A stretch of DNA of 64,000 bases from Candidatus Pacearchaeota archaeon (lineage in GTDB: Archaea > Nanobdellota > Nanobdellia > Pacearchaeales > GW2011-AR1), in contig JAAOYJ010000024.1 in the NCBI GenBank assembly GCA_018221285.1, positions 13,156 to 77,155 on the forward strand, in the 5' to 3' direction. The translations under genes were made by a program, and so were the position numbers. The notes under the pieces were generated by a model. It was not told the DNA's origin and did no database searches. It worked only from the letters and a program-made list of their open reading frames with translations. This document shows, piece after piece, positions 22,837 to 61,080 of this stretch (the first letter of the stretch is position 1; each line of letters begins with the position of its first letter).

Positions 22837-22950
22837 GTTCGCTCCGCTCACGATGGGTGGCTTCGAATCCTCCTTCGGCAGGATTCTTCGCTGAGAGGTT
22901 GTTAATGAGTTAGCTTCGCATAGTGTGTTGAGAAACTATTATTGTTATTA
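22837..22950 (+). repeat. mosaic intergenic repeat, copy E
   Basis: GGCTTCGAATCCT-loop-AGGATTCTTCGC hairpin + TGAGAGGTTGTTAATGAGTTAGCTTCGCATAGTGTGTTGAGAAACTA. Confidence 0.8.
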
Positions 22951-23004
22951 CTTCTAAAAGATAACAGTAGGAAGATTTATAAGAGTGAAAAATTTACTAA
23001 ACAA

Positions 23005-24018
23005 ATGAATATTGAAATAATTGATATATTAGTTGCGAGATTAAAAGATGCCCCAGTTGAAAAGCATCTGTTAGAAGCCCACCAGGATTTTTTGTTAAGA
23101 ACAGGATTCAGAAAAGTTGGTGAAGAAGGTATCTCACAAGATTCTGGCGTACTTGCAATAAATAGGAGTATGTATGCAGTTCCAGTTGTAACTGATGTTG
23201 TGTTTCTTCCCTTTAGTCGTTTAGAAGAAACGAGCGAAGGATATTGTTTTGGTCCTGAAGATACTAATGCGATTCCAGTAAATATGTGGTACGGAAAATG
23301 GCAAGGAAATTTAGTAAGTAGAGTGGATCTTTTTGTTCCGAAGCATATGGATCCTTTTCTTTATATTAGTGAATCTCTCCCAGATTATACAGAAAGAGAC
23401 AGGAGTGAACTAGAAAGATTTGAAGTTAGAAAATTTATTAGAAGTAGGGAAAATATAGAAGCAGTATTCCCTAGTTTGTGTGAAAAACTTGAAAGAGTTA
23501 CTCAACCATTAGAAATGCAGGTTTCTGAATTTGACGAAATCAAAAGTAATATTTCAGATAACCTTGATCTTTTAGGAATTGATCATAAAATTATTTATAG
23601 GTCAAAAACAGTAGAAAGTGTTTTTAGTAAAGCTGAAAGGCGACTAGCTACCATAAATTCATATAACGATTTTACTTATGGAGATTTGGGGTGGTTAGTA
23701 GATAAGGATATACCTTCTCTTGAAGAGGTGGCTCTATATAGTCCAGACATAAATGGCATGAGAGTTATGGTTAAAAGTGCAGAAGAATGTTATAAGGCAC
23801 TTGATGTTTTATCTCAAGAATATAAAGTTGAGAGTGTTGAAAGAGATGATGGAACCCTATTTTATCGAATTTATGATTGTATTCCATTTCCAAAAAGAAC
23901 AGGGTTCCAGATGATAGGTTATTTTTCTGAGATTAATGGAAAAAGAATTCACTTTGAAATCCAATCCGAAAAGATGCAATCAAGGGCTGCTAATGACGGA
24001 TATCATCTGAGAGTTTAA
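23005..24018 (+). CDS. divergent RelA/SpoT-synthetase-like nucleotidyltransferase with an unknown N-terminal domain
   Basis: The C-terminal third parallels the neighbour's synthetase domain. YRSKTVESVFSKAERRL matches GREKHIYSIYKKL. DINGMRVMVKSAEECYKALDVL matches DHFAIRIIAKSVDDCYKALGIL. PFPKRTGFQMIGY matches SPKPNGYQSLHT. IHFEIQSEKMQ matches VEVQIRTQEME. ATG 23005 preferred because the track start lies inside repeat E. Confidence 0.5.
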   Translation: MNIEIIDILVARLKDAPVEKHLLEAHQDFLLRTGFRKVGEEGISQDSGVLAINRSMYAVPVVTDVVFLPFSRLEETSEGYCFGPEDTNAIPVNMWYGKWQGNLVSRVDLFVPKHMDPFLYISESLPDYTERDRSELERFEVRKFIRSRENIEAVFPSLCEKLERVTQPLEMQVSEFDEIKSNISDNLDLLGIDHKIIYRSKTVESVFSKAERRLATINSYNDFTYGDLGWLVDKDIPSLEEVALYSPDINGMRVMVKSAEECYKALDVLSQEYKVESVERDDGTLFYRIYDCIPFPKRTGFQMIGYFSEINGKRIHFEIQSEKMQSRAANDGYHLRV

Positions 24019-24101
24019 TCTTCAAAACCAATTCTACATAAGAACCATTTTCTCAATTACAATTAACAGACTTTTAGAAATCTGTGAGTTTACGAGCGCT
24101 A

Positions 24102-24674
24102 TTATTTCTTCTTATAATTTTTCAAAGCAACCTTGACATGTTTTAGAAGTTGGTCCATGCTGTCGTCAAGTTGAGCTCTGTTTTTTGTTCCTGTACAAAC
24201 AAGTTTTCCGTTACTGAACAACAAGAATGTAGCGTTTGGTTCAATGAGTTTGTAAACCAATCCTGGAAATTGTTCTGGTTCGTATTCTGTGTTTTCCATT
24301 TCAAGTGCTAGAAAGTTTAAGTTAAGTTTTAAGTTAATTGAACCTGAAGCAACAATGTTCTGAACAGTGATTTTTGGAGTTATTGTAACGTTTACGTTTA
24401 TTTTTCTTAGTTGTTTTATTACTGCAGCAATTACTTGTTTTACTTGTGCTACTGATTTTGTTCCTGTACAAACCAAGTTTCCAGATGAGAAAACAAGGAC
24501 CGCTGATTTTGGTTCTTTGATTCTTAGAACAAGTCCTGGAAAAGTCTCAGGGTTGTATTCTGTGTTTGGCTGAGTTCTTGCAAGTTTTGTAAGTGGAACT
24601 GGTTTCCCTAAAGAAGTTGTTGCAACTATGTTTTGTATCTTATAAGTGCTTTTTTTCTTTTTCTTAACAGCCAT
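24102..24674 (-). CDS. tbp: TATA-box binding protein
   Basis: Two direct TBP repeats (IQNIVATT...LVCTGTKS and VQNIVASG...LVCTGTKN). Confidence 0.95.
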   Translation of the reverse strand: MAVKKKKKSTYKIQNIVATTSLGKPVPLTKLARTQPNTEYNPETFPGLVLRIKEPKSAVLVFSSGNLVCTGTKSVAQVKQVIAAVIKQLRKINVNVTITPKITVQNIVASGSINLKLNLNFLALEMENTEYEPEQFPGLVYKLIEPNATFLLFSNGKLVCTGTKNRAQLDDSMDQLLKHVKVALKNYKKK

Positions 24675-24715
24675 TTTATAATGATTTATACAAAAATTCT
24701 TTTATAAAGGTATCG

Positions 24716-24815
24716 AGGGTATTGCGCGAAACAAGTTCGCGATATTGATGGCTTCGCGTCGGACTTTGTCACGACGCTTCGCAGAGAGAAGTAGTTAATT
24801 GAATAGCTTGTTTAG
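24716..24815 (+). repeat. mosaic intergenic repeat, copy F (degenerate core)
   Basis: CGCGAA-ACAAG-TTCGCG hairpin, ATGGCTTCGC + GCGTCG-GACTTTGTCA-CGACGC hairpin + GCTTCGCAGAGAGAAGTAGTTAATTGAATAGCTTG. Confidence 0.7.
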
Positions 24816-24854
24816 TATAATAATTAATATAAACTAATTTTAATTCGAAGATTT

Positions 24855-59416: not shown

Positions 59417-60078
59417 TGTTTGTTTATGACTTCTAAAAGTTCTTCAATAGAATTAGTGTTAAACTGGGCGAGATTATGAACATTGGCATTAAAAGAGATG
59501 CTCACATCCGAATTATCTAACATTGTTTTATCTCCTAGGCTGTGGCCAATTCCAATTACTTTATGATTCTTTTTTAGTTCTTTAATGATATGTCCTTTAA
59601 GTTTATCTGAGATTACGAGTTGTGTGCCAGTTATTTTAGTGTTACCAAATATAAACTCTCCTGCGATTATGTTTCTTGAGTCAAAATCTATTTCACCTAG
59701 TTTAGCTTCGCAAATGTCTTTCATTCCAGAACTGATGAAAATCACAGAGTAATCTTTAGTTAGTTGTTTTATTAATTTATCAAACCCTTCTACCCAAGGA
59801 GTTTCTTCCACAATGTTATCGCGTAATTTTTTATATTCTTTTAGGTCATGCTCCCAGAACAAACTATTAAGATAACCTATTTCTTCAAATGAACAAGGGA
59901 TATATTTCTCTAATTCTTTTTTATCAATTGTTCCTGCTATTTTTTGAGTAACTTTTCTTACAAGATGAATTGGTATAGCAAGTTCATCAAAATCAAAAGC
60001 TAAGACAACCTTGTGTTTAAGGTTAAGTTCAGAAATTCTTTTATCTAAGAGTTTTAAGTTTTCTTCTTTAGTAAGCAT
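59398..60078 (-). CDS. HAD-superfamily phosphatase
   Basis: Motif I VLAFDFDE (DxD), motif II ISSG, and the GIGHSLGDKTML motif III/IV region. ATG 60078 preferred over TTG 60126. The last 19 nt are antisense to the tRNA-Lys 3' end. Confidence 0.6.
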   Translation of the reverse strand: MLTKEENLKLLDKRISELNLKHKVVLAFDFDELAIPIHLVRKVTQKIAGTIDKKELEKYIPCSFEEIGYLNSLFWEHDLKEYKKLRDNIVEETPWVEGFDKLIKQLTKDYSVIFISSGMKDICEAKLGEIDFDSRNIIAGEFIFGNTKITGTQLVISDKLKGHIIKELKKNHKVIGIGHSLGDKTMLDNSDVSISFNANVHNLAQFNTNSIEELLEVINKHGPGGI

Positions 60079-60128
60079 GTATGAACGTAAACAGTAAAAC
60101 TTAAAAACGTGTTGATTTTCATTCAATC

Positions 60129-60470
60129 ATGACTTTAAGGTTTTGTCACAAATGCAAAACTTTACAGAGACCCCGAAAAAAAGACGGGAAGATTATTTTT
60201 GATTGTTCTAAGTGTGGATTTTCTGAAGTTATTGACGAGAAAGATCATGTGATTACAAGTGAGAAAATGAAGAAGCCTGAGAAAAGAGGAAAGGGTTCTG
60301 TGGAGGATAAGGATGTGTTTGCAACGTATGAACATGTTTGTGAAAAGTGCGGGTATGATAAAGCAGAAGTAATAGATATGGGGATATTTTATTCAGATGA
60401 AGATAATTTGATTTTACTTAAATGTGGTAAGTGTGGTTGGTCTGAAAGGATTGGTCGGAAGGTATCTTAG
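60129..60470 (+). CDS. TFS/RpoM-like two-zinc-ribbon protein with a non-canonical acidic loop
   Basis: N-ribbon FCHKC...CSKCG. C-ribbon CEKCG...FYSDEDNLILLKCGKCGWSER, where canonical TFS has QTRSADE. Confidence 0.6.
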   Translation: MTLRFCHKCKTLQRPRKKDGKIIFDCSKCGFSEVIDEKDHVITSEKMKKPEKRGKGSVEDKDVFATYEHVCEKCGYDKAEVIDMGIFYSDEDNLILLKCGKCGWSERIGRKVS

Positions 60471-60566
60471 TCCCGCCCACCCACCCGTGGGGCGCTGACG
60501 CGCCAGTTGTTAATGAATTAGCTTCGCATAATCGTTTGAGTAACTTAACCTGTTTTTTGTTAATTA
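60471..60566 (+). repeat. mosaic intergenic repeat, copy K
   Basis: CCCAC-CCACCC-GTGGG hairpin, GGCGC-TGAC-GCGCC hairpin, AGTTGTTAATGAATTAGCTTCGCATAATCGTTTGAGTAACTTA, TTTTTTGTTAATTAC. Confidence 0.85.
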
Positions 60567-60598
60567 CTTTTTATTTCGAGCCTAAGGCGAGCAATTGT

Positions 60599-60907
60599 TT
60601 ATCTATATTCTCTCCAGGTGTGATTGCACTTTGTGCATTTGAAGAATTTAGTTTCTGCTTCGTCTCCTGCTCTTGTTTGAACAGTCCAGAAATAAGCATG
60701 TTTATTTTTGCACTTCTCGCAATCTTCCTTAACAATCGGTCTGACTTCAGAATCTTTTTCTTTTACCACAGTGATTTCTTTTTTATCATTAATCTTTTCG
60801 GAGATTATTACTTTTACTTTTTCTTTAGAAGAATAACTACATCGAGGGCATTTGCTTCCTTTCCCCCCTGACATCAAAATCGCACCGCACTTTGGACAAA
60901 ATTCCAT
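60599..60907 (-). CDS. tfs: transcription factor S (TFS)
   Basis: N-ribbon FCPKCG...CPRC. C-ribbon CEKC...WTVQTRAGDEAETKFFKCTKCNHTWRE with the canonical acidic hairpin. Confidence 0.85.
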   Translation of the reverse strand: MEFCPKCGAILMSGGKGSKCPRCSYSSKEKVKVIISEKINDKKEITVVKEKDSEVRPIVKEDCEKCKNKHAYFWTVQTRAGDEAETKFFKCTKCNHTWREYR

Positions 60908-60974
60908 ATTAAGATTAACACCTCATAAGCTAGGTACTTTTGTTCAGGTTGGTTTAAAAAGTTTTGGTTTATAT

Positions 60975-61080
60975 TGCTCGCTTCGCTCGGGATGAATGGC
61001 TCCGCGCCAGACTTTGTCGAGGCGCTTCACGAGAAGAAGTTGTTAATGGGATAGCTTCGCATAATCTGTTGAGTAACTTA
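60975..61080 (+). repeat. mosaic intergenic repeat, copy L
   Basis: CTCGCTTCGCTCGG, ATGGCTCCGC + GCGCC-AGACTTTGTCGA-GGCGC hairpin + CTTCACGAGAAGAAGTTGTTAATGGGATAGCTTCGCATAATCTGTTGAGTAACTTA. Confidence 0.85.

Follow-up and report, generated by a model that had tools for sequence, protein, structure and literature searches.

Covarying hairpins in the arms of a mosaic palindromic repeat family of a Pacearchaeota archaeon

The repeat family at the locus

The window, a 64,000-nt stretch of a Candidatus Pacearchaeota genome (G000:C9:13156-77155, where G000 is the source genome), carries among its genes a series of short repeats that stand as GC-rich islands within AT-rich spacers and whose arms contain two kinds of small hairpin, here called type a and type c. 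The stems of type c covary far above phylogenetic expectation, and the repeats that carry them are probably mosaic, mobile elements. The family is far beyond chance; its core word, GTTAATGAATTAGCTTCGCATAAT, matches the window 5 times against 0 expected, and the core is found in 37 significant copies across G000, every one between open reading frames (ORFs). The G000 assembly comprises 863 kb at 35% GC, is 82% complete, and includes tRNAs with introns, which marks the organism as a small archaeon of DPANN type. Gene identity to its congener, G001, is 75-83%; both genomes of the genus are incomplete, and ORF calls are crude.

When copies are aligned with their flanks, a common arm can be read that runs from an a box (AAATNGCTCGCT..) through the type a hairpin and GATTGATGG to an optional 33-nt type c module and then CTAAGAAGTWGTTAA. 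Conservation begins 5 nt before the GCTC of the a box, with none farther out. Arms are ~40 nt long (73 nt with c) and occur singly, as an inverted pair (foldback), or flanking a core. A full element has an arm at each end, inverted, around an asymmetric centre made up of TGRRATAGCTTCGCATWATAYGTTGAGYAACT, a T5-6 run, and GTTAAY; the genus-specific asymmetric core here reads TAGCTTCGCATWAT..TTGAGYAACT plus the T-run. Certain elements lack a centre and consist of a foldback alone, each arm carrying a+c (e.g., window 55850-56003). An additional b module (CCCGCCCACCCACCCGTGGG; 7 copies) substitutes for or precedes a, and lies within the core in copy A. Elements span ~130-180 nt and have no coding capacity. 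A conserved helix within the core (AAGTTGTT/AGTAACTT or GAAGUUGUU/GAUAGCUUC) was considered and rejected, as 53 cores inspected by eye revealed no covariation. The copies in the window are as follows.

5502-5662, forward strand: copy A; type a hairpin CTCGC-TGAC-GCGAG (5508-5521), b module CCCACCCACCCGTGGG within a diverged core, T-run and GTTAAT, inverted right arm ending at the stop codon of the convergent gene
15054-15215, forward strand: copy B; a box with extra inserted modules, diverged core, T-run
16763-16892, forward strand: copy C; full-length without c, type a hairpin CTCGC-TAAC-GCGAG (16769-16782), core (16791-16838), T-run with GTTAAT, inverted right arm
18036-18085, forward strand: copy D; truncated arm with hairpin CTCGCC-GGA-GGCGAG (18041-18055)
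22836-22940, forward strand: copy E; a variant, c module (22854-22900) with hairpin GAATCCT-CCTTCGGC-AGGATTC (22865-22886; stem GAATCC/GGATTC, UUCG-type tip), core (22892-22940)
24722-24810, forward strand: copy F; a variant CGCGAA-ACAAG-TTCGCG, c module (24745-24791) with hairpin GCGTCG-GACTTTGTCA-CGACGC (24756-24777), decayed core
46218-46288, forward strand: unnamed copy; hairpin-less a/c-like box GGCTCAC-TTT-GTTCGC, intact core
50400-50442, forward strand: core-only copy beginning immediately 3' of a stop codon
50895-50930, reverse strand: copy N; lone inverted a arm with hairpin CTCGC-GACA-GCGAG as read on the forward strand (50909-50922)
55850-56003, no strand assigned: symmetric foldback with a+c in both arms and no core; its two c hairpins are unlike
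55873-55919, forward strand: first c hairpin of the foldback, AACTGG-CCCTG-CCAAGTT
55935-55981, reverse strand: second c hairpin of the foldback, GAAATC-GAC-TCT-GTC-A-GATTTC
60471-60597, forward strand: copy K; b module, a-type hairpin GGCGC-TGAC-GCGCC (60491-60504), core (60505-60549), T-run, inverted right arm (60573-60597); the copy precisely occupies the space between two convergent stop codons
60966-61085, forward strand: copy L; a box (60971-60998), c module (60993-61039) with hairpin GCGCC-AGACTTTGTCGA-GGCGC (61004-61025; stem GCGCC/GGCGC), core (61033-61081); antisense to both neighbouring genes

The original prediction, that equivalent positions of different copies keep a hairpin while its stem sequence changes, quoted hairpins from nine copies, and all of them can be read directly in the window. 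Equivalence holds for copies E, F, and L, each of which is matched by the c covariance model described below, as is the inverted pair 55873-55919 / 55935-55981. It does not extend to copy I (CGTCGACG, 47253-47260), which had been assigned to type c; this copy has no match to the model and lies in a different motif context. Copy I (window 47240-47280) belongs to another recurring motif, GGACGCTCG..GAC.CAGTC..CTTCGCATAA, also present at G000:C42 ~8490-8580 and 188720-188760, that links an a-like box with the core word GCTTCGCATAAT.

Covariation of the type c and type a hairpins

Type c is a strict module of 33 nt, a length that nearly all copies have exactly. It opens with GGCTYCG, continues through a 6-bp outer stem, a 3-bp inner stem, and a triloop, and closes with CTYCGC; an unpaired A is bulged after the inner stem. 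The word GACTTTGTC, previously regarded as a conserved loop, is indeed the commonest form at this position, but it is itself an inner stem (GAC/GTC) plus a TTT triloop, and inner stems are GAC/GTC, GGC/GCC, GCG/CGC, or GGT/ACC. There are at least 22 distinct outer stems. The features that stay fixed across at least seven genera are the 33-nt length, the bulged A, the basal G-C pair of the inner stem (invariant), and the flanking C and T.

Copies of c were found by nhmmer and a covariance model, and pairing was tested on 37 of them. Partners are complementary in 93.7% of cells, compared with 65.5 ± 1.7% after column shuffling (0/500 shuffles) and only 34-41% when partners are slid, and both sides have changed in 8 of the 9 pairs. 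With model-aligned copies of five further genera added, 94.4% of cells are paired and both sides have changed in all nine pairs; slid partners span 34-49% over both sets. RNAalifold independently predicts the same helix. For a tree-aware null, the parsimony changes of each column were placed on random branches of a FastTree tree, itself built from the same 47-49 columns, in 2000 simulations. The null yields 0.61 paired (maximum 0.79) against 0.937 observed (0/2000), and the branches on which both partners changed number 16 against 3.1 in the null (for the second set, 27 and 3.0; 0/2000 in either case). The stems of type c thus covary far above phylogenetic expectation, as had been predicted, under every null applied and in the RNAalifold check that the prediction itself proposed. 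The module is an unusually clear example of evolution that preserves structure, apparently in DNA.

The same prediction for type a fared poorly. Covariation there is weak because the 5' arm is fixed and decay is one-sided, in the 3' arm; 87% of the long form is paired, and the one compensated change, from G-C to A-T, is shared by three copies. The form most frequent in the genome, GCTCGCTnnCGCTCGAG, makes only a weak fold of about -3 kcal/mol, a CTCG/CGAG stem interrupted by a 2-nt bulge. Right arms have longer a tips that are perfectly paired, and the GGCGC/GCGCC stem of copy K is part of a b-linked sub-module.

Gain, loss, and re-assortment of elements

Elements were gained, lost, inverted, and re-assorted between the two congeneric genomes. 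At the orthologous sites in G001, copy A is absent and copy C is replaced by unrelated DNA, while an element occupies the same site as copy B with other modules and the same site as copy E with a different left arm and no c. The c hairpin of copy F is identical in its G001 orthologue (22/22 bases) and the flanks differ. The site behind the tRNA gene at window 12210-12324 is empty in G000 (12325-12345) and holds a b+core-type element in G001 (C110 8013-8764), in which an IS200-like Y1 transposase gene (147 aa; end hairpins CTCCAC..GTGGAG) is nested. Outside the window, one element (C30:23479) has opposite orientations in the two genomes between the same flanking genes. Orthologous sites are also found with c stems or arms that differ.

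Elements also lie in frame, without stop codons, within conserved genes whose orthologues lack them. In TYW3 of G001 (C110 ~11690-11870), a complete 180-nt element adds 60 codons; the G000 orthologue (window ORF 8234-8842) is intact. In G000, a+c arms are inserted in sense in Trm5/TYW2 (G000:C9:93493-94371; ~36 residues) and in antisense in a Bud32-type kinase (G000:C42:15211-15963; ~53 residues), and both inserts are absent from every relative outside the genus. The G001 Trm5 site harbors a whole foldback in the opposite orientation; at the Bud32 site, position and orientation are shared between the two genomes and the c stems are different. These insertions in essential genes look selfish rather than useful. 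The Trm5 of G001 also has an N-terminal GC-rich insert, EKHGGHRPVYPKEGQDPKLWNEG.

Target-site duplication was considered and rejected, as the four elements that could be mapped at both termini have no direct repeats beside them and there is no conservation past -5.

Distribution and polarity

The c module is patchily distributed, occurring in 14 of 61 genomes of the family and in multiple copies in seven (G000, 33 copies; G001, 44; G059, 25; G042, 17; G010, 15; G019, 7; G070, 6). Other genera carry the same a-c arm around different centres, and identical stem variants recur between genera. The core, on the other hand, is confined to this genus among 41 relatives; in public collections it was found in a few G001-like metagenome contigs and in no viral contig. 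One contig with the repeat core, L015 (JBJXGU010000278.1; 7.7 kb, 33% GC), is labelled as part of a Bacteroidia metagenome-assembled genome; the core is archaeal, and the contig probably comes from a relative of this archaeon and was mis-binned.

Within a contig, all cores share one direction, independent of gene orientation. After GC skew was corrected for the coding-strand effect, core orientation in G000 agreed with its sign for 30/34 copies and, counted by contig, for 8/10; a hand tally of single c arms gave 17/19. The match in G042 is 14/16. On G000:C42 the gene-corrected skew is about -0.1 to -0.2 over ~265 kb, unusually strong for an archaeon, with a sign change near 270 kb. More tentatively, the link between orientation and skew may mean that single-stranded DNA of the replication fork is involved, as with IS200/IS605, whose orientation is biased relative to replication (PMC6006769), and for the repetitive extragenic palindromes (REPs) with their REP-associated tyrosine transposases (RAYTs).

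Comparison with known systems

Four groups of mobile repeats each share features with the elements described here, and none fits all of them. REPs, together with bacterial interspersed mosaic elements (BIMEs) and the REPIN-RAYT system (PMC3116915; PMC6006769), are likewise short, GC-rich, imperfect palindromes with conserved unpaired flanks; they form mosaics of inverted doublets and linker motifs, are intergenic in many copies, lack target duplication, and have a hairpin whose reading is presumed to take place on single-stranded DNA. The present elements have the inverted doublets and the conserved flanking bases, but no GTAG/CGTC-type tag, and no RAYT was found; they further differ in their archaeal host, their in-frame gene insertions, and the defining 33-nt two-tier hairpin with its bulged A. 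RAYT-type subclasses have not been seen in Archaea (PMC6006769). Rickettsia palindromic elements (RPEs), which lie in frame in Rickettsia genes (PMC10969869), are similar as ~100-180 bp palindromic repeats of a reduced, AT-rich genome that occur stop-free in unrelated housekeeping genes as well as between genes. Their sequence and domain of life are unrelated, however, and the present elements are built from modules (a, b, c, core) and have a polar orientation, with documented hairpin covariation.

Structured or modular bacterial transposable elements of the miniature inverted-repeat type (MITEs) such as Correia/NEMIS, ERIC, BOX, and RUP are non-coding, 130-180 bp long, and bounded by terminal inverted arms, with optional internal modules, genus-level specificity, and a preference for intergenic sites. 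A MITE census reports high densities in DPANN genomes (PMC11602168), and the present family is small, non-coding, armed with terminal inverted repeats, and numerous (863 kb contain 37 cores together with 33 copies of c); unlike in these MITEs, neither a target-site duplication nor a parent insertion sequence with the same ends was found, and single arms occur too. Finally, IS200/IS605 elements and their miniature derivatives (PATEs) share subterminal hairpins, the lack of target duplication, an orientation bias, and the presence of Y1 genes in the same genus. The arms here, in contrast, are true inverted repeats beyond the hairpin, with the bulge of the a hairpin mirrored, and the insertion sequence of G001 ends in unrelated hairpins; we therefore do not place the elements among PATEs. 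No description of the 33-nt c module was found in the literature.

Interpretation

The prediction had attributed the hairpins to selection on RNA or cruciform DNA. A structural constraint is probable for type c, and the evidence favors DNA over RNA; the constraint most likely acts on the DNA of a mobile element. Type c is present in both arms of foldbacks, which are inverted repeats; transcription through such an element would thus read one arm in sense and the other in antisense. Copy orientation is unrelated to adjacent genes (about half are antisense by tally), copies lie in frame within genes both in sense (Trm5) and antisense (Bud32), and the Bud32 hairpin is equally conserved on the non-transcribed strand. 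G·U occupies 1 of 359 cells in c pairs, and G·T mismatches (5) are not above A·C (11), which argues against any sense-strand wobble tolerance. Whole-element folding is no better than that of shuffles (z of -0.49 and +0.19), and known RNA families were rejected as an Rfam search with the element returned no family at E up to 1. For these reasons we consider it very unlikely that the hairpins act in RNA, as 3'-untranslated-region or terminator structures or as small RNA genes with a fold under selection. That explanation would fit the many copies that begin right after stop codons, the T5-6 run of the core, which could terminate archaeal transcription one way, and covariation as such; the co-orientation of copies could reflect expressed genes. 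It loses weight through the copies inside genes, the occurrence of either orientation, and the near absence of wobble pairs. A fixed-distance upstream promoter was also rejected (the distance to TATA-like words varies, and conservation sets in only at -5, just before the a box), and the core is confined to one genus. C/D-box RNAs, integron attC sites, and solitary CRISPR repeats were dropped by eye, as their consensus motifs did not fit.

Nor do we favor an origin without structural selection, in which palindromes would be made or kept perfect by mutation (template switching in quasi-palindromes, gene conversion that acts among arms or among copies, or unrelated small palindromes inserted independently at a hot spot). 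Such processes could account for pairs that are almost exclusively Watson-Crick with very few one-sided intermediates, for a tips that vary in length yet stay perfectly complementary (CTCGCAC/GTGC, CTCGTGC/GCAC, ACACC/GGTGT, ATTCTC/GAGAAT), and for modules that come and go, with whole stems replaced at orthologous sites. Random palindromes would nevertheless lack a common architecture, whereas c keeps its length, bulged A, invariant G-C, and flanking C and T across genera, and the same stem variants recur in different genera. Type a decays one-sidedly in the same elements, so no general palindrome-repair process is at work. We regard a purely mutational origin as unlikely; the earlier suggestion that selection on secondary structure, and not just shared descent, lies behind the stems is supported in part, and insertion and exchange of palindromic modules contribute alongside the structural constraint. 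The least likely of the explanations weighed is that the elements are domesticated, polar sites for protein binding or chromosome architecture, similar to the BIME sites bound by IHF and gyrase, that are kept by the host and mobile only historically. The agreement of orientation with gene-corrected skew in G000 and G042, the conservation of the 14-nt core word TAGCTTCGCATWAT as sequence rather than structure, and the F hairpin preserved between species in a decayed element would all be expected of such sites. A core confined to one genus, centres that differ by genus, the loss or replacement of copies at most orthologous sites compared, the selfish appearance of essential-gene insertions, and the absence of polarity in G059 would not.

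We propose instead that a Pacearchaeota-type DPANN lineage probably carries a mosaic and mobile family of GC-rich palindromic repeats, similar to REP/BIME, MITE, and RPE elements, and that the hairpins are structural modules of their arms. The hairpin would be maintained because its reading takes place on DNA, in a form extruded from the single strand or as a cruciform, and its reader may be a putative structure-specific enzyme that propagates the element. The variety of stems could then reflect old sub-families plus module exchange between copies.

Several observations weigh against this proposal. No mobilising enzyme was found for the element. Neither a Y1 transposase (PF01797) nor TnpB was detected in G000, an assembly that is 82% complete; Y1 transposases are present in 19 of the 61 family genomes, G001 included, and do not track c copy number, and the end hairpins of the IS200-like copy in G001 are unrelated to the repeat. 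An IS200/IS605 or TnpB origin was rejected on these three grounds, and with PF01797 absent from G000 and Y1 elsewhere uncorrelated with c, no RAYT gene flanked by REPs was found. The search for an autonomous partner with the same ends covered Y1 and TnpB, but not other transposase families, and found none. No near-identical pair of copies was found, and public collections, which yielded only G001-like contigs and no viral contig, offered no filled and empty strain-level pair that defines the ends; recent transposition is therefore not demonstrated. The identity of the F hairpin between species despite its decayed element could mean host-level function or gene conversion. Polarity was not replicated in G059, where the match is 8/16 and the corrected skew near zero. 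The only Cdc6/Orc1 gene found lies at C42:95.7 kb, away from the sign change near 270 kb; a replication origin at the skew switch was accordingly rejected, and because the switch is not beside cdc6, a replication strand is something that we infer from the skew.

A bolder extension, which we offer tentatively and consider rather doubtful as a whole, is that the a-c elements are the first archaeal counterpart of REP/RAYT: hairpin-guided, strand-polar mobile DNA that would move via single-stranded DNA at the replication fork through a putative structure-specific enzyme, with the 33-nt bulged-A hairpin as its recognition element and in-frame colonisation of essential genes as a routine outcome in DPANN archaea.

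Although tiny DPANN genomes are regarded as streamlined, this one carries dozens of copies of structured, apparently selfish repeats that remodel intergenic DNA and, within the genus, lengthen essential tRNA-modification and KEOPS proteins by 36-60 residues. As a bait for the putative enzyme, the c module offers its 22-nt bulged-A hairpin. The association of orientation with strand asymmetry, should a closed genome bear it out, would tie the spread of archaeal repeats to replication. For annotation, we suggest that the elements be masked, as they could pass for small RNAs, terminators, or protein insertions.

Additional observations

The tRNA genes at window 12210-12324, 30989-31098, and 59301-59416 contain introns of ~40 nt and are detected by the Rfam model and by no ARAGORN search. 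A relation between these introns and type c was rejected, as the introns of the three genes are unlike c. Finally, a GC-rich in-frame insert in gatA (window 4782-4857) shares the module CCCGCCCGTCAGCGCC-TTCG-GCGCAGACAAAAG with an intergenic G001 element (G001:C27 ~1500-1560), and the small hairpin of the insert differs from that of the G001 element by a compensated pair (GCGCC/GGCGC versus GCGAC/GTCGC).

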